Of a stretch of DNA of 27,620 nucleotides, positions 2,310 through 27,620 are shown in pieces. Numbering within the stretch: position 1 is the stretch's first letter; each line of letters opens with the position of its first letter. The translations under genes and the position numbers were made by a program. Under the pieces are notes generated by a model that searched no databases, was not told where the DNA came from, and was given only the letters and a program-made list of their open reading frames with translations. The DNA comes from a virus (taxonomy: Duplodnaviria > Caudoviricetes): positions 1 to 27,620 of the IMG/VR virus record IMGVR_UViG_3300032277_000065. One strand, given 5' to 3'.

Positions 2310-2912
2310 ATGACCAAAATAGTAGAACTTATTATAGACGACGAGGCGCTAGAAAACCAAGACGGCGTATTTGCTATAAGCCTAGTAAACCAACCCGCTA
2401 TACAAGAAAATTTTATAGCACTAAAACAAGCTAGTAAAAATATAGAGGTACAATTTAACGACCTAGATAAAGAGCAACAACTACTAATAGGCGCGGTACT
2501 GATACCTAACAAACAAATACTAAGAGTAGACGAGGACGGTAAAGACTACTACGTATACTTTAGTAAGGAAACAATACGAAAAGCTAGCGAGCTCTTTTTT
2601 ATGCGTGATAAACAACACAACCACACGCTAGAACATAATAAAGATATAACTAACCTAACAGTAGTAGAGAGTTGGATAAAGACAAGTAAAATAGATAAAA
2701 GCCATGAGTACGGTTTTAAAGACTTGCCTATAGGGACTTGGTTTGTATCGGTAAAAGTAAACGACCGTACGGTATGGGACAAATACGTTAAGAGCGGTAA
2801 GGTACAAGGCTTTAGTATTGAGGGTTATTTTACAGATAAGCAGACAACACTAAGCGAAGACGAGAACATACTAAACCGTATACGTAAAGTTATTCGCGAG
2901 AGCGGGCTATAA
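2310..2912 (+). CDS. Prohead protease, XkdF-like serine protease
   Basis: AISLV..PAI, GAVLIP, H, GTW and GFSIEG motifs; lies upstream of scaffold and capsid. Confidence 0.8.
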   Translation: MTKIVELIIDDEALENQDGVFAISLVNQPAIQENFIALKQASKNIEVQFNDLDKEQQLLIGAVLIPNKQILRVDEDGKDYYVYFSKETIRKASELFFMRDKQHNHTLEHNKDITNLTVVESWIKTSKIDKSHEYGFKDLPIGTWFVSVKVNDRTVWDKYVKSGKVQGFSIEGYFTDKQTTLSEDENILNRIRKVIRESGL

Positions 2913-3144
2913 ACTTATCTTTACTTTGAAAGTCTAGGGCATAATGACACTTGTAACAGAGTAGTCTAATATTGTCGGGGTCTAGTCTTAACTCGGGGTA
3001 TAAGCCTTTAGGTTTTATATGGGCAAAGTGCCACGCTTTAGCCTCGTTACCTAAATGCTCTTTACAGTTAGTACAAACGTGCGGGCGTGCTTGCCATATC
3101 TTAAAAAATAGGGCTTTCTCGCCCGTCTTTTTTCTACGTTTCAT
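2890..3144 (-). CDS. HNH endonuclease (Zn-binding)
   Basis: CTNC...AHIKPKG...NIRLLCYKCH pattern; the only convincing minus-strand gene. Confidence 0.8.
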   Translation of the reverse strand: MKRRKKTGEKALFFKIWQARPHVCTNCKEHLGNEAKAWHFAHIKPKGLYPELRLDPDNIRLLCYKCHYALDFQSKDKFIARSRE

Positions 3145-3211: not shown

Positions 3212-3775
3212 ATGAAAAACACTATTAACCAAATTAAAGCCATTTTAGGAATGGAAACTAACGAGGTCGAGCTTATGGCGGAGGCTATGCTAGTGGACGG
3301 TACTAAAATTGGTACAGATGCTGAAAAATTTGAGGACGGCGTTCTAGTATTCGTAGTAGGTGAAGACGGCGAAAAAATGCCACTACCTACGGGAGAATAT
3401 GAAGTAGAGGGCGGCGCTAAAATGGTAGTAAGCGACGGAGAAATTACAAGCCTTACGCAACCCGAAGAGGACGGCGAAGAGGCAGACCTTAAAAAGGACG
3501 AAAAAGAAGAGGAAGAGATGAGCGCGGAGACCGTAGACTTATCTAACTACGTTACTAACGAAAACTTAGTAGACGCCTTAGAGCTTATTCGTTCTGAATT
3601 TAAAGACACCGTAGAGGGTCTTACTAATGAGAATACAGAACTTAAAGAGACTGTACAAAAACTTAGTAAATTATCGGCAGTAAAGCCACTAAAACACAAT
3701 GCACCAACAAGCCCTAGTAAAATAGAAACGGGTAACAAGCATTTAGATATTATTTTAAACGCTAAAAACAACTAA
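3212..3775 (+). CDS. Capsid scaffolding protein
   Basis: Acidic, with an LPTGEY motif and C-terminal coiled coil; directly upstream of the capsid gene. ATG 3212 preferred over TTG 3185. Confidence 0.7.
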   Translation: MKNTINQIKAILGMETNEVELMAEAMLVDGTKIGTDAEKFEDGVLVFVVGEDGEKMPLPTGEYEVEGGAKMVVSDGEITSLTQPEEDGEEADLKKDEKEEEEMSAETVDLSNYVTNENLVDALELIRSEFKDTVEGLTNENTELKETVQKLSKLSAVKPLKHNAPTSPSKIETGNKHLDIILNAKNN

Positions 3776-5614: not shown

Positions 5615-6095
5615 AATAACGGTTAATTACTCTAGTAATTTGTTTAGTAATGCAATAAACAAGAGTAAACCCGTATTTATACCTAATTCTACGCACCAAG
5701 TACCTACTGTATTAAGTGCGCCTACACACTATTTAATAGAATTAATAGAACAAACTACGGGTAAGGTATACGATACGCTACTACAAAAGTCTAAAGAGAG
5801 TAGTAACGCTAGGTATATTACTTTTGACCTACGTATAGATTTAGCTACGCTAGAAACCCCAACGCGCAACGGTGTAATAGGCTTAGATAACGCGGGTAAA
5901 TACGACTATAATATATACGGCGTACTAGAAAACGCAGACTACCCCGCAACGGTGCAAGGTAAGAGCGACCAAAACGCGCGTATACTTATAGATAAGGGGG
6001 TAGCTATGGTTTACGATAGTTACGACTTTACTAATACATATTATAACCCCGATAGGCAAACTATACCTACGGTAATATCTTATAAGAATGAGTAA
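5577..6095 (+). CDS. Hypothetical virion protein (beta-rich)
   Basis: 172-aa ORF overlapping the portal start. Confidence 0.65.
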   Translation: MLSLKKIPNYRNKITVNYSSNLFSNAINKSKPVFIPNSTHQVPTVLSAPTHYLIELIEQTTGKVYDTLLQKSKESSNARYITFDLRIDLATLETPTRNGVIGLDNAGKYDYNIYGVLENADYPATVQGKSDQNARILIDKGVAMVYDSYDFTNTYYNPDRQTIPTVISYKNE

Positions 6096-8220
6096 GCTAC
6101 ATACATTTAATAACTCTTACGAGTATACAGACGATAGCGAAGTAGTAAAGAGCTCAGACGAGTACGTAAGCTACGGACAGAATAACGACTACCCTAACTA
6201 CCTTATAGACTTATACCAAAAGTCTAGCGTACACAATGCGCTTTGTAATTCTATAGCGTCTTGGATATATGGCGACGGGGTAACAAGTCCCGACAAAGAC
6301 GTAAAGGTAGAGGCTTGGGCTAAGTTTTTGCAACTATTCGATAAGGGCGTAGGTAAAAACACTATACAAAAATGCGTTTTAGACCTTAAAGTACAAGGCG
6401 GTTTCTATTTGTCTTTATCTTATTCCTTAGACCGCACTACTATAACAGACGTAGAGCATATACCTTACGAGAATATGAGAACGGGCGAAGAGACCGACGG
6501 CAAAGTAGATTTTTACTACTATTCTAAAGATTGGAGTAACGTAAAAAAGGCGGGTTACGATAAAGTCAAAGCCTTTGACCCCGAACAAAAACACGCTTTT
6601 CCAAGTCAAATAGCTTGTTTTAAAATGTATAGCGTAGGGTCTTACTATTACCCAAAGCCCGACTATCAAGGGGGACTAAATTATATTAACCTTGATAAGA
6701 ACGTAAGCGAATACCACCTAGCAAACATACAAAACGGTCTAGCGCCTAGTTTTTTACTATCATTTAACCAAGGTATACCTAGCGAAGAGAAACGCAGAGA
6801 GGTAAAACGCCAAATAGAAAACGAGTTAAGCGGGTCTAAAAACGCGGGTAAGTTTATACTTTCATTTTCAGACGACCGCGCCAACGCTCCAGAAATTACA
6901 AGTTTTGCACTCTCTGACGCTGACAAGCAATATGAGTTTTTAAGCAAAGAAATAACTAACAAAATTATGATAAGCCATAGAGTAGTAAGCCCTCGTTTAT
7001 TTGGGGTAAACTCTGACGGTGGCGGGCTTGGTAATAATGCGGACGAGTTACGTACGGCTAGTATATTATTTGAACAAACAGTAGTAACGGGCTATAGGGA
7101 CTTATTAACCGAGGCGCTAGAATTAATAATGTTTGAAGCGGGCGAGGGTATAAAATTAGAGTTTGAAAGCGCGCAACCATTTAGCGAAGAGGTAGAGGTA
7201 AAACGTACAGTAGAAGAGGTAGAGGCTACTAGCTTATCTAGTGAAAAAAAAAAGAAGAAACGCAACTATAAAACCCAAGACGACGTAGACCGTACACCTA
7301 CTAAAGGTATGGTAGAAGAGGCTAAAAAGGGTTTAGAGTGGCGTAGAGAATATAAGCGAGGCGGTACAGAGGTAGGAGTAGCTAGAGCTCGAGATATTAG
7401 CAACGGTAAAGACCTTAGTATAGATACTATTAAACGTATGTACTCTTACTTTGAACGCCATGAGGTAGACAAAAAAGGGCAAGGCTTTAACATAGGCGAC
7501 AAAGGTTTTCCTAGTGCGGGGCGTATAGCTTGGGCTCTTTGGGGTGGCGACGCGGGTCATAGTTGGAGTAGAAAAAAGGTAAAAGAGGTAGCTAATCTAA
7601 GCGAAAACGTACACCTATGCGACGAGGACGCTCACAAATGGCTAGAATACCTAGACAAAGTAGGCGAGGTAGTAAATACTAACTCTTGGGAACTTGTAGA
7701 AGAAACAGAGATAGACGACACTAAACTAGAGGCGCAATATCATAACGAGCCGTATAAGTTTTTTAAACGATACGCTAACCCCGAGGAAAAGAGTAAAACC
7801 GATAAGGGACTATTTAAAGTACGTTATAGATATAGTAGAAACCTAAGTAAGAATAGCCGTTTATTTTGTAAGAATATGGTAGCAAACGCAAAGCTAGGAG
7901 TATCTTATAGGTACGAGGATATTAGACAAATGGGTAAAGAGGGTATAAATGGCGAGTTTGCCCCAGAGGGTAAAAGTACTTACTCTATATGGGAGTGGAA
8001 AGGTGGGGTATATTGCCACCATAAATTTATACGTCAAGTTTGGAAACGTAAGCGAAACGCAAGCGGACAATTTTTACCAAACGACGGGCTTAATAACGAT
8101 ACAGAAGTAAGCCCAAATACAAGAGGTACGGGTATAACAAACCCTAGAGGGTGGCGTAAGTCTAGTACCCCTACAATAGATTTACCTAATAGAGGAAGTT
8201 TAAAACATAAAAACAAGTAA
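6088..8220 (+). CDS. Portal protein with a central helical domain and a C-terminal MuF/minor-head-like domain
   Basis: YG..NDYP..L..LY..S..H, YYP.PDY and NG.APS portal-type motifs in about aa 1-365; WALWGG domain; SRLFC...KGGVYCHH C-terminus. Confidence 0.8.
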   Translation: MSKLHTFNNSYEYTDDSEVVKSSDEYVSYGQNNDYPNYLIDLYQKSSVHNALCNSIASWIYGDGVTSPDKDVKVEAWAKFLQLFDKGVGKNTIQKCVLDLKVQGGFYLSLSYSLDRTTITDVEHIPYENMRTGEETDGKVDFYYYSKDWSNVKKAGYDKVKAFDPEQKHAFPSQIACFKMYSVGSYYYPKPDYQGGLNYINLDKNVSEYHLANIQNGLAPSFLLSFNQGIPSEEKRREVKRQIENELSGSKNAGKFILSFSDDRANAPEITSFALSDADKQYEFLSKEITNKIMISHRVVSPRLFGVNSDGGGLGNNADELRTASILFEQTVVTGYRDLLTEALELIMFEAGEGIKLEFESAQPFSEEVEVKRTVEEVEATSLSSEKKKKKRNYKTQDDVDRTPTKGMVEEAKKGLEWRREYKRGGTEVGVARARDISNGKDLSIDTIKRMYSYFERHEVDKKGQGFNIGDKGFPSAGRIAWALWGGDAGHSWSRKKVKEVANLSENVHLCDEDAHKWLEYLDKVGEVVNTNSWELVEETEIDDTKLEAQYHNEPYKFFKRYANPEEKSKTDKGLFKVRYRYSRNLSKNSRLFCKNMVANAKLGVSYRYEDIRQMGKEGINGEFAPEGKSTYSIWEWKGGVYCHHKFIRQVWKRKRNASGQFLPNDGLNNDTEVSPNTRGTGITNPRGWRKSSTPTIDLPNRGSLKHKNK

Positions 8221-10203: not shown

Positions 10204-11287
10204 GCCCGATAGCTTTAACCGTATGCGGTTAGCACCCGAAGAGGTAGACCTTATAAAAAAACATAGGGGCGAGTACGTCGAAAATATAAACGACAACTCG
10301 TTACTAGAACTACACCTTAAAGAGCGGGGAATACATAAAAAAGACGTAGTAAGCGTTAAGCATTGGCAGAACTTTAAAGGCGAGCCACGTTTTAGCATTG
10401 TTACAAAACAAAACCGCGACGACCTACAGATATTTAAAAAGGTACAAGACTACGTAAACGCCCACGCACCTACTTACAAGTATATACAACGTAAAGAAAA
10501 GGACGGGCATCTATTAGTAATAAACCCCGCCGACGTTCATATAGGTAAATACGCTAACGCTTTAGAAACGGGCGACGAGTATAACGTAGATATAGCAGTA
10601 AAACGCGTTTTAGAGGGCGTACAAGGGCTTATAGATAAGTCTAAGGGCTTTAATATAGATAGGGTTTTATTATGCTTAGGAAACGACATACTACATATTG
10701 ATAACGTCTATAACACTACTACAAAAGGTACGCACCAAGACACCGACGGCGGTAAATGGTGGGAGTTTTACGACGTGGCTCTACAACTCTACGTAAAAGT
10801 TATAGAGATGCTACGCCATATAGCCCCCGTTGATTGCGTACACTCTATGAGTAACCATGACTACCAGAGCGGGCACTACCTAGCCAAGACTATAAAGGCT
10901 TGGTTTAGAAAAACTAAAGACGTAAGAGTAGACGCGGGCGCGTCGCATAGAAAATACTATAAGTACGGTAATAGCTTAATAGGTTTAGAGCATGGCGACG
11001 GGGCTAAAGTAGATAACTTACCCCTACTTATGGCTAACGAACGCCCTACAGATTGGTCTTGTACCTTATACAGGTATTGGTATTTACACCATTTGCACCA
11101 CAAAATAAAATATAAATATAGAGACGCTAAAGACTATATAGGGGTAACTATTGAGTACTTGCGTAGCCCCTCGGGGTCGGATAGTTGGCACTCTCGTAAA
11201 GGATATACGGGCAGTAAAAAAGCCGTAGAGGGTTTTATTCACTCTAAAAAAGACGGTCAAATAGCCCGACTTACCCACTACTTTTAA
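10196..11287 (+). CDS. Calcineurin-like metallophosphoesterase
   Basis: ADVH, GND, SNHD, HGD and HHLHH motifs in canonical order. Confidence 0.85.
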   Translation: MSKPDSFNRMRLAPEEVDLIKKHRGEYVENINDNSLLELHLKERGIHKKDVVSVKHWQNFKGEPRFSIVTKQNRDDLQIFKKVQDYVNAHAPTYKYIQRKEKDGHLLVINPADVHIGKYANALETGDEYNVDIAVKRVLEGVQGLIDKSKGFNIDRVLLCLGNDILHIDNVYNTTTKGTHQDTDGGKWWEFYDVALQLYVKVIEMLRHIAPVDCVHSMSNHDYQSGHYLAKTIKAWFRKTKDVRVDAGASHRKYYKYGNSLIGLEHGDGAKVDNLPLLMANERPTDWSCTLYRYWYLHHLHHKIKYKYRDAKDYIGVTIEYLRSPSGSDSWHSRKGYTGSKKAVEGFIHSKKDGQIARLTHYF

Positions 11288-11429
11288 AATTCAAATGTAA
11301 AATATTATATATTTTATTTAAGGCTATTTTTAGCCTCTCTAAGAGACTTTGTACTTTCTCTAGTACGAGTGCGCCCCTACATTTCTACGGCGCAGAAATT
11401 TAAACGTAAAAAAAATATTGCTTGCGTGC

Positions 11430-11460
11430 TTGCGTAACTGTAAATTTTAATTTACATTTG
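11430..11460 (+). promoter_or_regulatory. Bacteroidota primary-sigma (early) promoter
   Basis: TTG (11430-32), 20-nt spacer, TACATTTG (11453-60), matching the -33/-7 consensus; upstream A-tract. Confidence 0.75.
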
Positions 11461-11485
11461 CGTATGCATTCGAGATAGGGGGCTA

Positions 11486-11501
11486 GTTATTTGACATATT
11501 G
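11486..11501 (+). promoter_or_regulatory. boxA-like antitermination element
   Basis: GTTATTTGACATATTG about 20 nt after the inferred start site; resembles rRNA-operon boxA. Confidence 0.4.
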
Positions 11502-11534
11502 ATATAGTTATATACGTAAAATGCTACGGACGGC

Positions 11535-11685
11535 TATAGTACTAACCTAGGGGTAAGGGAAACCCAAACGCGGAACGCGGGAGGCTTTAGGGTTAGAGTA
11601 ATGCTATACAAGTACAAACGCTAAGTACTTTAATCGTTAGGACGTTTTTAACTTATCAAGCTGACGCCATAGGGGGCGTACCTAA
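11535..11685 (+). ncRNA. Structured non-coding leader RNA, family unknown
   Basis: No substantial ORF; GC-richer than its flanks; nested helices and several hairpins. Confidence 0.45.
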
Positions 11686-11691
11686 ATACCC

Positions 11692-11749
11692 GTTATACTG
11701 ATGAGCCTATAAAGGCGAAACGCTAGTACAATATGCTAGCGTCTATAAC
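11692..11749 (+). ncRNA. Hammerhead ribozyme, type I (HH1); predicted cut after C11743
   Basis: GTTATA-CTGATGA-GCCT(ATAA)AGGC-GAAA-CGCTAGTA(CAATA)TGCTAGCG-TC-TATAAC. Confidence 0.95.
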
Positions 11750-11767
11750 TAACTAAAATTTATTAAA

Positions 11768-12007
11768 ATGGAAAAAATTAAAAACTACCAAAAGCTAAAC
11801 CGTCTAAGTTGTAAATATGATATGTATTGTAACGCTACTTTAGATGATACTTGTAATAACCTTTTTAGAAACGACGTAAGCGCTATAAGGTTAATACGAG
11901 CCACCAACCCCGCCGACGTAACCGACGAGCATATTAAACGTATGCAAGAGATAAACAAAACGTGTAAGGCTATAGTAAAGCAAATAATTAAAAACCAAAA
12001 CAGTTAA
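11768..12007 (+). CDS. Early hypothetical protein (79 aa), between HH1 and HH2
   Basis: ATG 24 nt after the HH1 cut site; stop codon lies inside HH2 stem I. Confidence 0.8.
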   Translation: MEKIKNYQKLNRLSCKYDMYCNATLDDTCNNLFRNDVSAIRLIRATNPADVTDEHIKRMQEINKTCKAIVKQIIKNQNS

Positions 12008-12061
12008 ACTGACGAGACCTAAAAGGTCGAAACGCTACCCTACGGGGTGGCGTCTTTAACT
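12002..12061 (+). ncRNA. Hammerhead ribozyme, type I (HH2); predicted cut after C12054
   Basis: AGTTAAA-CTGACGA-GACCT(AAA)AGGTC-GAAA-CGCTACCC(TACG)GGGTGGCG-TC-TTTAACT. Confidence 0.95.
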
Positions 12062-12078
12062 AACTAAAATTTATTATT

Positions 12079-12426
12079 ATGAAATACGGAGTATTAGAGG
12101 GGGGTAAATTAACTAGGTTTAAAAACCCTACCAATTTAAAAGAACTAGCAAAGAGCGTACTAACTAGAGAAATATTAAAAGAGTTTGTAATGCCTAACAC
12201 CTTTAAAGAGGGCGTACAAATGTATTTAGATAGTTGGGTAGAGTGGAGCTACGACACCGAAGAGCCCGTAGAGATGCCTAGCCAAATAGTAGACGTAGCG
12301 GTAGATACTATAGTATACTCTAATAAACATTTTATAGACTTACGTACTAAAGTAGAGATAAGCAACGAAAAGCGCGCTAAATTAAACGAGTATATAATAG
12401 ACTTAATACTAGAAAATTTAGACTAA
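12079..12426 (+). CDS. Early hypothetical protein (115 aa), between HH2 and HH3
   Basis: ATG 24 nt after the HH2 cut site; stop 1 nt before HH3. Confidence 0.8.
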   Translation: MKYGVLEGGKLTRFKNPTNLKELAKSVLTREILKEFVMPNTFKEGVQMYLDSWVEWSYDTEEPVEMPSQIVDVAVDTIVYSNKHFIDLRTKVEISNEKRAKLNEYIIDLILENLD

Positions 12427-12427
12427 T

Positions 12428-12485
12428 GTTAAACTGATGAGCTCAAAAGAGCGAAACCCTAGTACGAGTTGCTAGGGTCTTTAAC
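12428..12485 (+). ncRNA. Hammerhead ribozyme, type I (HH3); predicted cut after C12479
   Basis: GTTAAA-CTGATGA-GCTC(AAAA)GAGC-GAAA-CCCTAGTA(CGAGT)TGCTAGGG-TC-TTTAAC. Confidence 0.95.
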
Positions 12486-12505
12486 TAATCTTTAAATTTA
12501 TTATT

Positions 12506-12838
12506 ATGCGAGAAAACACGCACCTAACCAGACTACTAGCGTATCTTAAAGACAACCCTAGTATTACGCAAAAACAATGTACAGACGAACTAGGTAACAC
12601 TAGGTTAGCGTCTACAGTATTTAAACTAAACCGACACTTTGAAAGTAACGGGGACGACTTAACTATTATAAGCCTACCGCGTAAAGTACCTACAAGGTTT
12701 AGAACTAAAGACGGTAGCCCTAAAGTAACTACGGTAGCAGAGTATAAACTAGTCTCTAAGGCTAAACATATTTTTAACTCTGACTATGACCCCGTTGGCG
12801 AAGTAACCGACCTTATTAACTCTTTAAATATTAAGTAA
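12506..12838 (+). CDS. Winged helix-turn-helix DNA-binding protein
   Basis: LLAYLK..PSITQKQC...LGNTRLASTVFKL...VAEYKL pattern of phage HTH proteins. Confidence 0.65.
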   Translation: MRENTHLTRLLAYLKDNPSITQKQCTDELGNTRLASTVFKLNRHFESNGDDLTIISLPRKVPTRFRTKDGSPKVTTVAEYKLVSKAKHIFNSDYDPVGEVTDLINSLNIK

Positions 12839-13050
12839 TGACAGAACAAGAGAAAAAAGGACTACTAGAAAACGTAATAAACTTACTAGAGGGTATACAT
12901 AATAATACCGCTATAGATACAGACCCACAAAAAACACTTATAGAGGGGTTAAATAAAGTCTTTAGCGACAATAGACTAAACCGTACTAGGTTAAACTACG
13001 CTATAGAGAAACTAAACGAACTAAAACTAAACTTAAATTTACCACAATGA
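12838..13050 (+). CDS. Hypothetical protein
   Basis: TAATG translational coupling. Confidence 0.7.
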   Translation: MTEQEKKGLLENVINLLEGIHNNTAIDTDPQKTLIEGLNKVFSDNRLNRTRLNYAIEKLNELKLNLNLPQ

Positions 13051-13265
13051 GCCGATTATTTGAACAATTTGTAGAGCAAGTATTTGTTAACAACCCGTAC
13101 GCGTACGCCGACGAGGTACAAAAAGAGCTAGACGTACAAGAACAAGAATATAAACACCGACAAAAGCGCCTTATACTATGGCAAAATGGTACGGTAACGC
13201 TATTAAATGGCGGTACGGTTAAAGAGTGGGTAGAGCTTGGGCGACCTAAAAACCCTAACCTATGA
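13047..13265 (+). CDS. Hypothetical protein
   Basis: ATGA coupling. Confidence 0.7.
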   Translation: MSRLFEQFVEQVFVNNPYAYADEVQKELDVQEQEYKHRQKRLILWQNGTVTLLNGGTVKEWVELGRPKNPNL

Positions 13266-13588
13266 AAGTAAGACTACGAAGTAAGCGCGGGCTCGTACAT
13301 AATTGCGAGACGCCTAAAGCGTGGGCGGTAAAGTCGGGTAAGGATATGGTATTTGTACCTAAAAGTAAGAGCGTAGTAACTCCTGTAGAGAGTAGTAAGT
13401 ATATTAACTGCGATAAAGAAGAGTATTTGTACTACGACCTTATAGTAGCTAACGGCTTTTTAGAGGGTAAAGAAGACCTTATAGAAACGCTAACGGATAT
13501 ATACCACCTCAATAAAATGTTGCATAGTAATAAAAGCGACGTACCATTTGTACAACCTAAAGAAGTTTTACCAAATGGAAGAGCGTAA
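13262..13588 (+). CDS. Hypothetical protein
   Basis: ATGA coupling; contains an ETPKAW...FVPKS motif. Confidence 0.7.
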   Translation: MKVRLRSKRGLVHNCETPKAWAVKSGKDMVFVPKSKSVVTPVESSKYINCDKEEYLYYDLIVANGFLEGKEDLIETLTDIYHLNKMLHSNKSDVPFVQPKEVLPNGRA

Positions 13589-13817
13589 AGAGTTTATTTA
13601 CCGTATGCTTACAATGATAAGCGAGGTGCAAGACAAACCTAATTTTAATATAAAGGACGTAGTAAACCTACTAGAGTTTCAGCTACACGCTAGAGACAAA
13701 GAGGTAGCTACAGACTTTAAAGAACAAGCCCTAAGTAAGTTTAGTTTGTCGGGCTTACATAAAAACAGTTACAAAGAACTAGACAAATATTTTAACTTAA
13801 TCTTAACCAATTATTAA
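13575..13817 (+). CDS. Hypothetical protein
   Basis: ATG 13575 preferred over TTG 13548. Confidence 0.65.
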   Translation: MEERKEFIYRMLTMISEVQDKPNFNIKDVVNLLEFQLHARDKEVATDFKEQALSKFSLSGLHKNSYKELDKYFNLILTNY

Positions 13818-13833
13818 ACCTAATTTTAAACAA

Positions 13834-14373
13834 ATGGCACAAGCTGAAATTAAAAACGCAAAAATTGAACTAGTAACGCCTAACGGAACGTGGCAAACTA
13901 GCGACGGGTCTAAGACCTTTTACAAATTCGAGATAAGTTTTGACAACGGAGACGTAGGCGAATACTCTAGTATTCATAAAGAGCAAAACAAATTCGAGGT
14001 AGGGGCTACCGTAGACTACGAATATTACGCGGGTAAATTTCCAAAGATTAAACCCGTATACGCTAAACCTAGCGTACCTTATGGTAACCCCTCGGGTAGC
14101 TTTGGTAAGTCTGACGACGTGCAAGTAAAGATAGTTAGACAAAGTATGCTAAAAGCCTCGGTAGACTTTTGGGCTATTACCCCACAGTTAAAGCCAACGG
14201 TACAAGATATACTAATAACGGCTAAAAAGTTTATAGACTTTGTAAACCAAGAGGACAACCTACAATTTTCTAAAGAGTTTACTACGCCTAGCAGTATCGA
14301 AAATAAATTTAAAGAGGCTAGCATAGAGGCAGAACATAACGACCGCGTAGAAGAGGAAAACCTACCCTTTTAG
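13834..14373 (+). CDS. Single-stranded DNA-binding protein (OB-fold-like)
   Basis: Aromatic beta-rich N-terminus, IVRQSMLKA helix, acidic tail ending EEENLPF. Confidence 0.7.
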   Translation: MAQAEIKNAKIELVTPNGTWQTSDGSKTFYKFEISFDNGDVGEYSSIHKEQNKFEVGATVDYEYYAGKFPKIKPVYAKPSVPYGNPSGSFGKSDDVQVKIVRQSMLKASVDFWAITPQLKPTVQDILITAKKFIDFVNQEDNLQFSKEFTTPSSIENKFKEASIEAEHNDRVEEENLPF

Positions 14374-14393
14374 TTAGTTAGTTAAGGTAGGTT

Positions 14394-14428
14394 AAGTAGA
14401 GCCCCTACGGGGGCTTTACTTTTTTTTT
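14394..14428 (+). terminator. Rho-independent terminator
   Basis: AAGTAGAGCCCC-TACG-GGGGCTTTACTT followed by a T-run; cUACGg tetraloop. Confidence 0.9.
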
Positions 14429-14446
14429 AATTTAAACTATATCAAA

Positions 14447-14662
14447 ATGAACTTATACAAACCTAGAAATAAGCAAGAGGTATACCTTTTTAAGTATTAC
14501 AAGAGTAAAACGGATATATCTAAAGCGCTAAAACTAACGCGCCCTACAGTCGATAAGATATGTAGAGACCCTAGCTACTTTATTAAGTATGCCGACCGTA
14601 TAGCAGAGGCAACTAAACGACCTTTTAAAAAGGTTATTAGATACGTAAACAATGGTTTATAG
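14447..14662 (+). CDS. Small HTH protein (Cro-like)
   Basis: SKTDISKALKLTRPTVDK helix-turn-helix pattern. Confidence 0.6.
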   Translation: MNLYKPRNKQEVYLFKYYKSKTDISKALKLTRPTVDKICRDPSYFIKYADRIAEATKRPFKKVIRYVNNGL

Positions 14663-15425
14663 TTTCCATACAGACCACGCAAAAGCCTACGGGGTAGATG
14701 AAGCTATAGTAATCTATAATTTATTGTTTTGGATAGCTAAGAACAAAGCCAACAATAAAAACGAGTACGACGGTAGTACATATACCTACAACTCTATAAA
14801 CGCGTTTAGGTCTTTGTTTCCGTTCTGGAGTGAACGACAAATAGGTAGAATACTAAAAAGCCTAGAAACTCAAAACGTAATAAAAGTAGGTAACTATAAT
14901 AAGGCTAAGTACGACCGTACTAAATGGTACGCGTTTGTAGACTACCAAACAATATACCAAACGGTAAAAAGCAACTTACCGAACGGTAAAAAGGAATTTA
15001 CCAAACCGTTAAAAGCAAATAACCAAAAGGTAAAACCTATACCATATACTAAAACTACATATAGTAAACCTAATAATAATAACATATATAAAGAGTGTGT
15101 TAGCGTCTACGACGCTTTTATTAAAAATAGGTTAGATATGCCCGCAAAGATTAACGGGGCAGAGGGTAACGCTTTAAAGCAGATTATAGCGTACTTAAAA
15201 AAGTCGGCGAGCTCAAAAGGTTTAAACGACGAAACTACTATAGACGGTTTTAAATATATCTTAAATAGTTGGGACAAGCTCGAGCCGTTTTTACAAAAAC
15301 AGATAAAGCTAACCCAAATTAACAGTAACTTAACTAACATAATAAACGACTTAAAAAATGGACGCGGACAAAATAAAGCAAGCGGTAGCGCTCTTAGGGA
15401 CAAGCTCCGAGCAAAGTACACGTAA
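14652..15425 (+). CDS. Replication initiator (wHTH replisome organizer)
   Basis: AKAYG..EA...FWI..N..N...DG..YTYNS...FPFWS...DRTKWYA N-terminal domain; internal iterons. Confidence 0.8.
   Translation: MVYSFHTDHAKAYGVDEAIVIYNLLFWIAKNKANNKNEYDGSTYTYNSINAFRSLFPFWSERQIGRILKSLETQNVIKVGNYNKAKYDRTKWYAFVDYQTIYQTVKSNLPNGKKEFTKPLKANNQKVKPIPYTKTTYSKPNNNNIYKECVSVYDAFIKNRLDMPAKINGAEGNALKQIIAYLKKSASSKGLNDETTIDGFKYILNSWDKLEPFLQKQIKLTQINSNLTNIINDLKNGRGQNKASGSALRDKLRAKYT
14955..15035. repeat. Four 22-bp-period iterons, putative replication origin
   Basis: TACCAAACGGTA (14955), TACCGAACGGTA (14977), TACCAAACCGTT (14999), AACCAAAAGGTA (15021). Confidence 0.75.
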
Positions 15426-15945
15426 TTTACCTAGCGCGGTAACAACCTTTAACGAGGTAAGCCTAGTAGATAACCCCAGAGCTTTTAAAATGCAAGTAAT
15501 AAACCTAGACGAAAAAAGCCTAGCGCATATAATATTAAAGCATAAGCCCAAGAGCTTACAAAAAATAGCTAAAGAGCAAAGCAACGAAAAGGTAGTAGAC
15601 CTAATTAGTATACTTATTATAGAGGTATTAGAGTGGTATAATGTTAAAAACTCTATGAGCGACACGCAGATAGTAGACGTTGCGTATATGGTATACAATG
15701 AGTTTAAACGCTTTAATTTATACGATATAGGGCTTTGCTTTAACCGAGGCAAAACGGGTAAGTATGGTAAAGTATACGACCGTATAGACGGGGGTATATT
15801 ATTTGAGTGGCTAACTAGGTACGATATAGACCGAACAGGTAACATAATTACAATACGAGAACAAGAGAACGCACTACATAAACAAGCCTTTAGAGAGCGT
15901 AGTAGTGAGACAACTATAAAAGACTATCTAAATGGAAATAACTAA
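15358..15945 (+). CDS. Replication accessory protein, possible helicase loader (DUF6633-like); start uncertain
   Basis: Directly after the initiator gene; GKYGKVYDRID..I..W motif. Confidence 0.5.
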   Translation: MDADKIKQAVALLGTSSEQSTRNLPSAVTTFNEVSLVDNPRAFKMQVINLDEKSLAHIILKHKPKSLQKIAKEQSNEKVVDLISILIIEVLEWYNVKNSMSDTQIVDVAYMVYNEFKRFNLYDIGLCFNRGKTGKYGKVYDRIDGGILFEWLTRYDIDRTGNIITIREQENALHKQAFRERSSETTIKDYLNGNN

Positions 15946-16564
15946 CGAGTGCAATATGAAACTAATGGCTAGGTATGAGGACAATTATTTCGACCTAGCA
16001 ATAGTAGACCCACCTTATGGTATTGGTGCTGGTGGGAAATCTTTTAAAAATGGAACAAGCAAAAACAAAACAATAGGATATAAAAATAAAGATTGGGATA
16101 ATAAAATACCAAATAAAATTTATTTTACCGAATTATTTAGGGTAAGTAAAAACCAAATTATTTGGGGTGCTAATTATATGACAATACATTTACCTCCAAG
16201 CATGGGGTGGATATTTTGGGATAAAGGAACAGGGGACAATAGTTATGCAGACGGAGAAATAGCTTTTAGTTCTTTTAATAGAGCCTTAAAATTATATAAA
16301 GTTTCTTGGGTAGGGGCAAATGCTAACAATGGCACACCAAGAATACATCCCACAGAAAAACCAATTAGATTATATGAATGGCTGTTAATGAACTATGCTA
16401 AAGAGGGCGACAAAATACTAGACACGCACCTAGGTAGCGGTAGTATAGCTATAGCTTGCCATAACTTAGGGTACGACCTTACGGCTTGCGAATTAGATAA
16501 AGAGTACTACGACAAAGCTATAGAGCGTATAGAACAACATAAAGCGCAGTTACGTATATTTTAA
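15932..16564 (+). CDS. Amino (N6-A/N4-C) DNA methyltransferase, beta class, orphan
   Basis: DPPY catalytic motif first, then HPTEKP, then LDTHLGSGS SAM-binding motif. Confidence 0.92.
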   Translation: MEITNECNMKLMARYEDNYFDLAIVDPPYGIGAGGKSFKNGTSKNKTIGYKNKDWDNKIPNKIYFTELFRVSKNQIIWGANYMTIHLPPSMGWIFWDKGTGDNSYADGEIAFSSFNRALKLYKVSWVGANANNGTPRIHPTEKPIRLYEWLLMNYAKEGDKILDTHLGSGSIAIACHNLGYDLTACELDKEYYDKAIERIEQHKAQLRIF

Positions 16565-23779: not shown

Positions 23780-26700
23780 ATGGCTAGTACTTTAGTAGCA
23801 ATAGATAGCGACGGCAATAAATTTTACCTAGACGTACTAAAAGGGCAACCTATTACGGCGGACTTTAAATTCAAAGATATAACCGACCTTAAAACAAAGG
23901 GTAGCCATACCTATAACTTTAGACTACCTAGCACACCTAACAACGATAGCTATTTTGCTACTTACTTTATGGCGGGTAGTTACTGCGCAAGCGACGGCAC
24001 TAACTCAAATTTTAACCCTTATTTTAAAGCCGAGGCTTATTTATTACAAGATACTGTAGAAGTATTTAGCGGTTATCTACAATTAGTAAACGTATTTTTA
24101 AGAGAGGGCAATAGATACGAATATGAAGTAATTTTGTATAGTAACAACGTTTCTTTAATGGACGATTTAAAGGGCGTAAGTATGGCAGACGTAGATTATA
24201 GCCAATATAACCATACACCAACTACAGACAATATATACGACACTTACGCAAGTAATAGTATAGCTAACGGCGATTTAGTATATAGTCTTTGGGACTATGG
24301 TACAGGTATGGCAACTAGTCAGAGCTCGGAGTTTTTTGTACCCACTACTACGGGTTTTCCTTTTCCGCAATATAATAAAGTAATTATAAATTTTTTACGC
24401 CCACAAATAAGACTAAGCGCCTTAATAACTAAAGTACTAGGGTACAAAGGCTACACCTTTAGTAGTGCTTTTTTTGATAGTGCAATAGGTCAGAAAATAT
24501 ACTGCGACGTAAACTATAGCGGTAGCGATAGCCTAACAAGTAATACGCCAGAGAGTTACTACAAAGTAAAAGCACGTAATACGGGTAGTCAGATTATAGA
24601 GTACGGTAGTACGCAAAACATACTAAACACCCCTACAGAAGATTTAGACAATAACGGAAACTTTGACCCATCAACTAATATATATAGCCCCCCTTTTGGT
24701 GGAGTGTATCAAGTTACAATAAGGGCAACCCTAAACGGGCAAGCGGGCGATATGGGGACTAGTAGCCCCGCTAGGTTTGGTTTATATTTAAAGACGGGGT
24801 CAAATACGTATTTATTAATAACCTACGCGGGTAACGAATTTAATATAGGCGCGGGTACTACGCAAACTATTACCTCGGGCTTTGATACGTCAGTCCCAAT
24901 ATCTTTAGCAAATGGTAGCCAAATACAGTTAAGCTCGGCGTCTAATATAGTAGTAAGATTAATAACTGAAACTAATACCGCGTACCCCGTTGGCGATAAT
25001 ATACAAATAACAGACGCGTCTATACAAGTTGATTTAATCGGCGCAAACGAGACGGGGGCGCAAATAAGTATAAACCAACTATTTGGTAACTTAAAAGCCT
25101 TAGACTTTTTTACTAGTGTTATACGTAAATTTAACCTTACAGTAATACCCGACCCTACAAATAGTAAGCACGTATTTATTGAGCCTTACGATGATTTTAT
25201 GAACGCGTCAAGCGGTGTAAAGGATTGGTCTAAAAAAATAGACTTTACTAAAGACGTGCAAATAATACCGCCTACTAAAATAAGCGGGCGTAACGCATTA
25301 TTTAAAGACACACCTAGCGACGACTACGTATACCAAAGTATAGCCCGTTCTCGTAGGTTTACATACGGCGAGTACGACTATAATATAGGTAACGAGTTTA
25401 GCGAAACTACTAATAATTTTACTACAGTATTTAGCCCTACAATAAATTACCCTATTCAAGACGCGGGAATATATAGTAGCCCTATTATAACAACTGACGA
25501 GGACGGCTATAAAAATGTAGGGGGTATAAGACTAAGTTTTTACCATGGTACGGACACCGTAGACAACGGGTTAAAATATGCTTTATATTATGACGACGGA
25601 AGTAACTCGGGCGACTATAAACATAATTTAACAGTAGCGCCTTATTTTAGCGCTTTTAGTGAAAAAGATTTTCAAAATAGTAATACAGTTTTTACTATAA
25701 ATTGGGGGTGTACTCTTAGCGAGCAGTTAGGACTATGGGAACAAATACCTTTACTTGGGTGCGCGCATAAATTCTGGCTTAGTTATATAAGAACAAACTT
25801 TGATAAAAACGCCCGTATGTTAGTGGCGTATATGAGACTAACCCCTAGCGATATACAAGACTTTAAATTTAACGACGTAATACATATTAACGGCGACGAT
25901 TATATAGTAAACAGTATAAAGGGTTATAATATAAATTCAGCTACTATATGTAAGGTAGAGCTCTTAAAAACTTACGTAACCTTTGGTAGTTTTCCCGAGG
26001 ACTACGACCCTAGTACGGGCGGGGCTTGTCCTACCATATTCGATATATACTCTGTAGACGGAGTAATTTATGACGCTAATACAAATAACCCCGTCAATGA
26101 AAGTTGTTGCGATATATTTAACTCACAGTTTAGCGGTGGTTTTGGGTTTTTTGTTAATGGGTTATGTTATACCCAACCCCAAAGAACTATACAAAGAGTA
26201 GAGCGACCTATAAATAATAACGTAAAGGGCGTAGATAACAAGTTCAAATTTTTAGAGGGTGGTAATATTCAAGGAAACCGCAACAATGTAGTAAACGGGG
26301 GGAGAGATATTAAAATAAACGGAAACGAAAATAACGTAAGGTCTGGAGTATTTAAAGTAGATATAACGGGCGATAGCAATATAGTACTAGATAAGTCTAC
26401 CGACGTAACTATTATAGGTACGGGTAACATAGTTAGACCCGCTAGCGACAACATAGAAATAAATAACCAAACGGTAGTATATAATAACTCTTTAAGTAAC
26501 ATACGTATAACGGGCGACTACGGGCTAGCTTTAAATAACAACGAGGTAATAGTAAGCACGTCAGAGGAAAACCTAGTAGGAACTAGCCAAAAGGCAGAGC
26601 ATATAATACGTACTACGGTAGCGGGTGGCTCTCGCGACGCTTGGGTAGGTCAGCTAGGCGCATTTACTACCTACCCCGTAGGTAATACTTATAACAGTGA

Positions 26701-27620
26701 TTTAGGTATAAACGCCTTTAGGTTACCCGCTAAAACTTTAATAACTTTAACTATAACCCTACAAGCTACTACGGGAACTACTAATAATACGACTAATACG
26801 CAAAGTTGGGAAACTGTAAGAGAGTATAAAATATTGAGCGGTACTGCGCCTATTATATTATCTAGTAATACAGTAAGCCAAACACAAAGTAGCGAATTTA
26901 CTAACGCAGAGATTCAGCTACACCCTAGTAGTAATATACCTTATTTATATAACGCTTATTTACTATGGCTAAGTTTACCATATAGAACACTCGTAAACGA
27001 TAGTACATTTGTAATTAAAACAAATTACACCTCTAGTATATTAAGCGGTACGGTTACTACTAACGTAGTACCTACAGATATAACGGGCTGTAAATTATGG
27101 CTAGATAGCGCTAACTTTGGTAGTCTAAGTTTTAACTCTACAGTAGGTAGCGGGCAACCTATAACCGAATGGTACGACCGTAGCGGGGGGAATAACCACG
27201 TATTACAAAATAATGTTACATATATGCCCAAATGGTGGAGCGGTGCGGGAACTCTAGGCGGACGTCCTTACTTAGAGTTTGACGGTAGTACTGCGGTTAT
27301 GTTTAGCACCGACGCAGACCTACTAAACTTAGCTAGTGGCGACAACACATTTATAGTAGTATTTGAGAGCGATAAAATAACTAGCGAGACTTTCGGGCAA
27401 GTGGTAGCGGGTATAAATACTAGTACGGGTTTTCCTAGGGCGGGTATAGTTGTAAACGCTAACGGTACGTACGGCGGTGGTAGTAATGATAGCGTAAGCT
27501 ATTATAACGAAAATACCTCTACTAATATGTTTCAATGTAAAATACAAAACGCGGGCGTAACAGATAAAAAAATAGTAGTAGGTAGACGAGATAACACCGA
27601 CCTAGATATAATAGACGAGA
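23780..27620 (+). CDS. Large tail-tip / host-recognition protein (1347 aa with the wrap to 361)
   Basis: MASTLVAID...YLDV...FKDITD...NFRLPSTPNN start; the same frame reads sensibly at spot checks (24641, 26261, 27071); missed by the track because no stop occurs before the window end. Confidence 0.85.
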   Translation, partial: MASTLVAIDSDGNKFYLDVLKGQPITADFKFKDITDLKTKGSHTYNFRLPSTPNNDSYFATYFMAGSYCASDGTNSNFNPYFKAEAYLLQDTVEVFSGYLQLVNVFLREGNRYEYEVILYSNNVSLMDDLKGVSMADVDYSQYNHTPTTDNIYDTYASNSIANGDLVYSLWDYGTGMATSQSSEFFVPTTTGFPFPQYNKVIINFLRPQIRLSALITKVLGYKGYTFSSAFFDSAIGQKIYCDVNYSGSDSLTSNTPESYYKVKARNTGSQIIEYGSTQNILNTPTEDLDNNGNFDPSTNIYSPPFGGVYQVTIRATLNGQAGDMGTSSPARFGLYLKTGSNTYLLITYAGNEFNIGAGTTQTITSGFDTSVPISLANGSQIQLSSASNIVVRLITETNTAYPVGDNIQITDASIQVDLIGANETGAQISINQLFGNLKALDFFTSVIRKFNLTVIPDPTNSKHVFIEPYDDFMNASSGVKDWSKKIDFTKDVQIIPPTKISGRNALFKDTPSDDYVYQSIARSRRFTYGEYDYNIGNEFSETTNNFTTVFSPTINYPIQDAGIYSSPIITTDEDGYKNVGGIRLSFYHGTDTVDNGLKYALYYDDGSNSGDYKHNLTVAPYFSAFSEKDFQNSNTVFTINWGCTLSEQLGLWEQIPLLGCAHKFWLSYIRTNFDKNARMLVAYMRLTPSDIQDFKFNDVIHINGDDYIVNSIKGYNINSATICKVELLKTYVTFGSFPEDYDPSTGGACPTIFDIYSVDGVIYDANTNNPVNESCCDIFNSQFSGGFGFFVNGLCYTQPQRTIQRVERPINNNVKGVDNKFKFLEGGNIQGNRNNVVNGGRDIKINGNENNVRSGVFKVDITGDSNIVLDKSTDVTIIGTGNIVRPASDNIEINNQTVVYNNSLSNIRITGDYGLALNNNEVIVSTSEENLVGTSQKAEHIIRTTVAGGSRDAWVGQLGAFTTYPVGNTYNSDLGINAFRLPAKTLITLTITLQATTGTTNNTTNTQSWETVREYKILSGTAPIILSSNTVSQTQSSEFTNAEIQLHPSSNIPYLYNAYLLWLSLPYRTLVNDSTFVIKTNYTSSILSGTVTTNVVPTDITGCKLWLDSANFGSLSFNSTVGSGQPITEWYDRSGGNNHVLQNNVTYMPKWWSGAGTLGGRPYLEFDGSTAVMFSTDADLLNLASGDNTFIVVFESDKITSETFGQVVAGINTSTGFPRAGIVVNANGTYGGGSNDSVSYYNENTSTNMFQCKIQNAGVTDKKIVVGRRDNTDLDIIDE
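27463..27620. repeat. Terminal direct repeat / assembly overlap, right copy
   Basis: Matches 1-158 with one mismatch. Confidence 0.95.

Follow-up and report, generated by a model that had tools for sequence, protein, structure and literature searches.

The window, by which is meant the whole 27,620-nt stretch of DNA that was analysed, is one phage contig coding for terminase, portal, virion, lysis and replication-initiation proteins, from a phage known from metagenomes only. Its two ends (positions 1-158 and 27463-27620) share 158 nt with one mismatch, so the phage genome is probably complete and circular, with a length of ~27.5 kb; a 1280-aa ORF at 23780 extends into the end overlap. The nearest terminases are those of Flavobacterium phage 11b (49%) and Cellulophaga phage phi10:1 (47%), and this kinship, taken together with a match to the Bacteroidota-type promoter and with initiation-favouring adenines in the leaders listed below, makes a Bacteroidota host likely. 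The phage appears to be a free one, with no integrase match. Avoidance of restriction sites is suggested by the window having no GATC, CCGG or GGCC at all and a strong shortage of CCTG/CAGG; it also codes for a DNA methyltransferase, at 15932-16564. An HNH endonuclease gene (2890-3144, minus strand), located between the head protease and scaffold-like genes, is the sole gene opposing all others, and the portal protein (6088-8220, 710 aa) has a long C-terminal extension matching phrog_2859, apparently a fusion.

The early transcript is predicted to run from ~11465 to a hairpin at 14394-14421 and to include eight ORFs. The features of this region are the following.

11430..11460, + strand: match to a Bacteroidota sigma-A-type promoter (TTG, 20 nt, TAnnTTTG), with the start predicted near 11465
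11465..11691, + strand: conserved untranslated leader, which HH1 would release as part of an RNA of ~280 nt (11465-11743)
11486..11502, + strand: boxA-like element of 17 nt, a 16/17 match to a motif of Bacteroidota rRNA leaders and spacers
11664..11679, + strand: 5-bp hairpin just upstream of HH1, with a compensatory change from A-U to G-C in 3/7 leaders
11692..11749, + strand: HH1, type I hammerhead, predicted cut after C11743, U1.7 at 11750
11744..11767, + strand: 24-nt A/U-rich leader after HH1, with A at -3, -6, -12 and -13
11768..12007, + strand: variable gene of slot 1, 79 aa, no PHROG or Pfam family above cut-off
12003..12060, + strand: HH2, type I hammerhead, predicted cut after C12054, the stop of ORF1 inside it; absent from relatives L013 and L015
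12055..12078, + strand: 24-nt leader after HH2, near-identical to that after HH1; a ribozyme-less copy precedes the same gene in relative L010
12079..12426, + strand: gene of slot 2, 115 aa, no family; two homologous clusters, one being itself
12428..12485, + strand: HH3, type I hammerhead, predicted cut after C12479
12480..12505, + strand: 26-nt leader after HH3, with A at -3, -6 and -12
12506..12838, + strand: 110-aa probable helix-turn-helix (HTH) protein, first gene of the conserved early block (phrog_4973, E 8.7e-7)
14394..14429, + strand: intrinsic-terminator-like hairpin (14394-14421) and U run, which would end the early transcript

The promoter pattern, whose consensus and -12 to -5 position are given for Bacteroidota in the available part of PMC9723704, has three matches in the window, only one of which (11430-11460) is non-coding, and its -7 box is invariant in all seven aligned leaders (7/7). 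Upstream of this promoter, at position 11370/11371, the window is 94 nt shorter than L010, L011 and L013 and than contigs of sequencing runs X1 and X4, which suggests either a strain deletion or an assembly slip. The terminator-like site is the only one in 11250-14700, and shuffles average 2.6, so the count itself is not significant. An Rfam match to sbrA at 14356-14426 was rejected as being this terminator hairpin.

Fold, family scores and covariation of the hammerheads

A structure descriptor applied to the full 27,620 nt, on either strand, gives three type I hammerheads and no more, with CUGANGA cores starting at 11698, 12009 and 12434, and the same descriptor finds none in 300 dinucleotide-preserving shuffles. 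Each copy folds alone into a three-way junction with an open stem I, loop-closed stems II and III and a G10.1-C11.1 pair, and the core (C3-U4-G5-A6-N7-G8-A9, G12-A13-A14-A15.1, U16.1-H17) is exact in all three, with GUC as the triplet. A prior sequence-only reading of the window had proposed three complete type I hammerheads, and the proposal holds, as do its stems, its cut sites, its post-cut leaders of 24, 24 and 26 nt and its spacings of 311 and 425 nt between cuts. Two of its positional claims stand in part. It had put the starts of HH2 and HH3 at the upstream stop or 1 nt past it, and HH3 does begin 1 nt after the stop of ORF2, but the stop of ORF1 (TAA, 12005-12007) lies within stem I of HH2 (12003-12008); and the claim of one ribozyme before each gene applies to the first three ORFs but not to the remainder of the eight that precede the hairpin. 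A clade-specific covariance model run with its filters off finds no fourth hammerhead copy in the window.

The comparison with Rfam that the same reading had proposed places hammerhead families at all three sites (five matches in total), but only HH2 attains a gathering score, that of RF00163, and by a margin of 0.2 bit (34.2 against 34). The best match of HH3 is to RF02275 (35.5 against a gathering score of 52), HH1 is matched only at E values of 0.04-0.18, and the gathering thresholds of RF02275 and RF03152 are reached by none of the three copies. Among 50,697 phage records the region is unmatched except for one 46-nt piece over HH3. The copies resemble RF00163, RF02275 (Hammerhead_HH9) and RF03152 (RAGATH-1-hammerhead) in type I topology and core, and the 5' hairpin of the RAGATH-1 model is also found before HH1, the hairpin at 11664-11679 being the one placed in that role. 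They differ from HH9 in that HH1 and HH2 lack the extended stem I with its internal loop, and from the short-stem eukaryotic repeat forms in that stem III is long.

The sequence-only reading had also held that the copies covary, which is borne out in an alignment of 14 distinct copies from the window and its relatives, one of them from the distant L491. In this alignment 95.5% of the stem cells are paired, as compared with at most 46.9% in slid controls, and 11/16 stem pairs show two-sided changes, a value reached by none of 500 shuffles; because the alignment had been made to fit the structure, and because the copies share ancestry, these figures are supportive and do not represent a probability. 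The core is invariant across the 14 copies except at N7.

Covariation beyond the stems was evaluated in a wider sample, obtained by a pattern scan in which only the core and U1.1 were fixed. The scan gave 138 loci from 4 of the 64 parts of a viral collection (an estimated ~2,700 stretches), of which 118 have a valid type I fold, yielding 132 distinct copies; 131 of these have enough flank, and the 101 with a domain II of 12-13 nt were analysed, the 30 with a longer one being left out. The last base of loop II and N1.7 covary as U/A or A/U in 91 of the 101 (U/A 68, A/U 23, G/A 8, other 2), with a mutual information of 0.75 against a maximum of 0.12 in 1000 permutations, and the association holds over 86 distinct stem types, the statistic being one that treats the copies without a model of relatedness. 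This covariation is likely to reflect a tertiary contact, with a presumptive pair geometry. All three copies in the window have A as the last base of loop II and U1.7, and the reversed form (A1.7, loop II U) is three times commoner in the phage sample (68 vs 23). The U1.7 of HH2 could alternatively pair with A2.7. The contact between loop II A and U1.7 is reported in the available part of PMC11875169 to speed minimal hammerheads, and a section heading of that paper describes U7 as not essential in its own constructs. The window copies share with the minimal hammerhead of O'Rourke et al., as described in the same available text of PMC11875169, a 6-bp stem I, a 4-bp stem II, U1.7 and the loop II A, but that hammerhead is an engineered trans-acting construct. 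No report of the loop II/N1.7 covariation was found in the literature outside subscription papers.

Junction geometry and the leader before the first ribozyme

The sequence-only reading had described the post-cut leaders as standardised, a description that fits both their near-identity and the recurrence of the same geometry in the independent viral sample. In that sample the cut falls 15-45 nt before an ATG in 96/121 copies (17% for random positions), and 95/124 have an upstream stop no more than 12 nt from the core (7% for random positions), the UGA of the core itself serving as the stop in 25 of those 95. The ORFs that follow are small (median 68 aa, n=82). The window thus has the layout that is normal for this common phage element, and the survey of other phages that had been proposed for such ribozyme-gene arrays finds them to be common in viral contigs, with arrays of up to seven hammerheads. 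The array of seven, on one contig represented by L094 and L095, packs seven type I copies into ~4 kb; a small gene follows each of them at 20-32 nt, and both forms of the tertiary pair are mixed. An unrelated phage (L002, reverse strand, 2340-2500 and 3320-3350) has four hammerheads, the first of them preceded by a direct repeat of ~35 nt, as well as a fifth core-like sequence that lacks full stems.

Adenines at leader positions such as those listed above enhance initiation in Flavobacterium johnsoniae, according to the available part of PMC6847099, and the start region is predicted to become 1.2-2.9 kcal/mol cheaper to open once the RNA is cut. The release by cleavage of a sequestered ribosome-binding site was rejected as an explanation, since stem I overlaps a Shine-Dalgarno-like site in 0/63 cases.

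The leader upstream of HH1 is 90.7% identical to that of L015 over 11440-11536, as against 76% for the adjacent gene. Its consensus fold has two-sided changes in 4/57 pairs over 7 sequences, which is weak, and its single-sequence fold is no better than that of shuffles (z -0.49). A conserved anti-core switch upstream of HH1 was considered and rejected, because it is not kept in L015 and L479 and because the same bases pair inside the leader consensus fold. The 7-nt sequence AAYGCTA occurs in three copies in the leader, at 11520, 11600 and 11617, which are possible protein-binding sites; a branch of ~60 nt containing one of the copies is missing from L010, L015 and L479.

The 17-nt motif in this leader, which we take to be a boxA-like antitermination site, lies on the sense strand upstream of 16S (4) or 23S (16) rRNA in 20/122 genome loci, Rfam confirming rRNA at 3/20 loci tested; 98 motif loci have no rRNA signal, some of them lacking flank. 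The 12 rRNA-linked loci with known titles are all from Bacteroidota. Position 4 of the motif is C in all 20 rRNA-linked loci, A in the window, and C in L015 and L479, which match exactly. That the site recruits host antitermination factors of the rRNA type is speculative. A search for the leader motif found it only in the four known relatives, and no report of a boxA leader on hammerhead arrays, or of boxA in Bacteroidota phages, was found outside the subscription literature. As a general partner of hammerhead arrays boxA was rejected, since only 5 of 109 hammerhead contexts have the site ahead of them and all five belong to the clade of the window (the 500-nt reach of this search may miss the starts of arrays). 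By eye, a boxA-like sequence that failed the pattern can be seen in L004 at 520-545, after a promoter-like site and ahead of an array of three hammerheads.

Variable genes and presence or absence of the module

The slot genes have nothing above cut-off in Pfam, searches of the atlas gave no usable match for them, and their single PHROGs match is that of one relative's gene to a family of unknown function. The 110-aa protein that follows HH3 is below the cut-off of Pfam HTH_39 (17.2 vs 21.3). In slot 1, between HH1 and HH2, six strains hold five unrelated protein groups, and homology is lost at the start codon, to return 4-28 nt ahead of HH2. The order of units varies among the relatives as follows: HH1-99aa-HH2-56aa-leader copy-118aa-HH3 in L010, HH1-80aa-HH2-118aa-94aa-HH3 in L011, HH1-70aa-118aa-94aa-HH3 in L013, HH1-143aa-HH3 in L015, and HH1-152aa-HH2 followed by a member of the 143-aa family in L484. 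(L481 was left out as a probable duplicate of the window, and L482 and L483 were not counted again beside L011 and L013.)

The leader copy of L010 (7136-7159) is a post-cut leader without a ribozyme, placed before the 118-aa gene and present also in runs X3 and X4; the identity of L010 to the window starts at the first base past the HH2 cut. A deletion or insertion between leader repeats fits this arrangement, and an RNA-guided origin is possible.

If the cassette repeats are kept chiefly as DNA-level anchors for recombinational gene exchange, cleavage would be incidental or merely tolerated. Such a role would account for the switching of homology at cassette edges, for the 143-aa family, which follows HH1 in L015 and HH2 in L484 (69% identity), for the further slot-1 replacements in runs X4 and X5, whose joints are at cassette edges, and for the 94-aa gene of L011 and L013, which is missing from the window with a junction in a near-repeat of ~10 nt. 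Recombination favours identical repeats, whereas these copies keep their structure at no more than 61-80% similarity, and the covariation of the tertiary contact implies selection on the catalytic fold; anchoring as the selected role is for these reasons judged quite unlikely. An integron-like cassette array was rejected, given that there is no integrase match among the scanned ORFs and that slot-1 homologs exist without the element.

The whole module can be absent. Among 58 exonuclease-related loci with at least 1.5 kb downstream, five keep the syntenic HTH gene, three with ribozymes and two (L012 and L014) without. These two have no leader, boxA-like site, ribozymes or variable genes, and their HTH allele (40% identical) directly follows the promoter region. 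L012, ~92% identical to the window on both sides, shares a group with the window, L013 and L010 (91/91, not starred) from which the ribozyme-bearing L011 is excluded; loss or exchange of the module as one block is therefore likely. Searching with the HTH protein recovered three of the four known relatives and nothing else. Homologs of the 79-aa protein occur in three other phage contigs with no flanking hammerhead, two having none within ~3 kb and one having a copy 1.4 kb upstream, so the gene does not depend on a ribozyme and does not bring one with it.

Proposed processing of the early RNA

Clustered prophage hammerheads flanking single genes or blocks whose identity is not constant, together with the proposal that they release gene-sized mRNAs, were described by Perreault et al. 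2011 (PMC3088659, available part), who showed that three prophage clusters cleave in vitro and that one does so in E. coli, with triple arrays active in both settings. The window resembles those clusters, as far as their available description goes, in having several hammerheads close together in one operon around genes of inconstant identity. It differs in being an apparently free Bacteroidota phage with no integrase match, in having compact type I copies with a 6-bp stem I and a 4-bp stem II, and in a single loop II/N1.7 contact where the available text of PMC3088659 emphasises a pseudoknot; beside the same text, its clade adds swapping at the strain level and ribozyme-free siblings. The layout and the single-gene-mRNA idea have accordingly been known since 2011 (PMC3088659, in the part available), and the window is a new example rather than a new kind of system.

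The best reading of the array is that it would provide protein-free processing of the early transcript at gene junctions. In this reading, which we consider reasonably probable, the hammerheads would cut the early RNA and thereby give the swappable genes and the conserved block their own 5' ends, each with a strong leader. It is built on the folds and positions of the ribozymes, on the covariation of the stems and of loop II with N1.7, on the variable genes between constant cassettes and on the absence of the module from close relatives; its start site and its set of products are predicted. Host RNA polymerase would start near 11465, and cleavage would yield a leader of ~280 nt, single-gene RNAs of 311 nt and 425 nt, and a six-gene RNA of ~1.95 kb. 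Each cassette of ~80 nt would combine a stop context, a cut and a start context, so that an incoming gene could be expressed independently of its neighbours, and the cassette repeats would double as DNA homology for gene exchange. The single-gene messages of the sequence-only reading would thus be two of the four predicted products, the leader RNA and the six-gene RNA being of another kind, and L010, L011 and L013 have units of two or three genes. Processing is not essential, given the slot-1 homologs without an adjacent ribozyme and the absence of the module from L012 and L014.

Two functional analogies, which do not imply membership in either system, may be drawn. The early mRNA of phage T7 is cut between the early genes by RNase III, a host protein that leaves 5'-monophosphates. 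Synthetic insulators of the RiboJ type, attributed to Lou et al. 2012, reportedly cut upstream of the ribosome-binding site and so produce a defined 5' leader.

A broader version of the processing reading treats the locus as a plug-in expression module in which a boxA-like antitermination leader is combined with stop/cut/start cassettes, an RNA-level counterpart of the integron, acquired, lost and refilled in one piece, with ribozymes drawn from a widespread compact phage subfamily and held active by one loop II/N1.7 pair. As a whole, this version is put forward tentatively.

RNA data bearing on cleavage come from assembled contigs of five runs (X1-X5), one of which is on record as RNA. A 713-nt contig of that RNA run, X1, crosses HH3 uncut, as does a 157-nt contig of X2, whose RNA status is a guess; such contigs could come from precursor RNA, from incomplete cleavage or from DNA carried into the library. 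The promoter, the leader and HH1 are uncovered in X1. One contig of X1 ends ~10 nt before the HH2 cut and another begins ~7 nt before it, while X4, whose kind is unrecorded, bridges HH2; these contig ends come from one study and lie in a repeated, strain-variable region, and they were not counted toward cleavage. Ribozyme cutting can also arise during RNA extraction and reverse transcription (bioRxiv 10.1101/2024.07.19.604288). When the copies are folded in their context with a nearest-neighbour model, which includes neither tertiary contacts nor Mg2+, the probability of stem I is 0.00-0.01 for HH1 and HH2 (flanks of 60-150 nt) and 0.73-0.79 for HH3, and imposing stem I carries a penalty of 2.0 kcal/mol for HH1 and 3.5 kcal/mol for HH2. 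Taken with the contigs that cross HH3, these modelled folds would count against fast constitutive cutting.

Another reading is a translation-coupled switch, in which ribosomes stopping in or beside stem I would unfold the ribozyme and cleavage would occur only when the upstream gene is poorly translated. The contigs that cross HH3, the weakness of stem I, and the stops at stem I or core, here and in the 95 surveyed copies noted above, are all in keeping with such a switch. There is, however, no ORF upstream of HH1, regulation is not required to explain why stops crowd up to an element that is itself rich in stop triplets, and the compensatory changes preserve a plain, constitutive-looking fold; a switch of this kind is considered distinctly improbable.

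The effect under selection might instead be the half-life of the products, whose 5'-OH ends and structured cyclic-phosphate 3' ends would prolong the action of the earliest genes or shut it off, an explanation that joins the stability idea of the sequence-only reading, which gained no support here, to its opposite. In E. coli 5'-OH ends resist RNase E, and in Bacillus RNase J1 degrades them after glmS cleavage; the effect of such an end depends on the nucleases of the host. The same geometry is nevertheless found with and without Shine-Dalgarno leaders and across a wide range of GC content, and hence probably in hosts with different decay enzymes, and half-life alone does not explain why ribozymes bracket variable genes. 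In favour of this decay timer or stabilizer, two stable hairpins would end each upstream product, and altered stability or translation is the outcome proposed in reviews (PMC6765202, available part). On balance it is thought unlikely.

Very improbable, finally, is a circular or mobile RNA, in which the cut-to-cut fragment is re-ligated into a protein-coding circle or the ribozyme-gene element itself moves. The 425-nt unit could indeed close a perfect stem I from the 5' strand of HH3 and the 3' strand of HH2, and the cross-pairing is 6 in the equivalent pair of L003, but the 311-nt unit is mismatched at the second pair and only 26/48 adjacent pairs in the surveyed arrays are cross-compatible. 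The run contigs contain no cut-to-cut back joint (a comparison of low power), the ORFs scanned have no reverse transcriptase or integrase family match, homologs of the gene exist without ribozymes, and the available part of Perreault et al. 2011 (PMC3088659) records no circles. A retrozyme or other circular ribozyme element was rejected on the grounds that the units carry unrelated genes, that the 311-nt unit is mismatched and that the run contigs hold no junction.

The role of hammerheads in phage genomes is a stated open question (PMC6155905 and PMC6765202, in their available parts). The reviews, in the portions available (PMC6765202, PMC6155905, PMC7761336 and PMC13725137), repeat the 2011 proposal and call the phage role open, in agreement with the earlier statement that no worked-out function is known for such an array; none was found in the literature outside subscription papers. 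Beyond the arrays already known, the window and its clade add a covarying tertiary contact and a swappable leader-ribozyme module with ribozyme-free siblings. Since two of the three copies fall below Rfam thresholds, the covarying pair could improve search models, and it also gives a precise mutational test. The clade itself provides a natural comparison between siblings that have the entire module and siblings that lack it, and between strains that carry different genes in one and the same slot.
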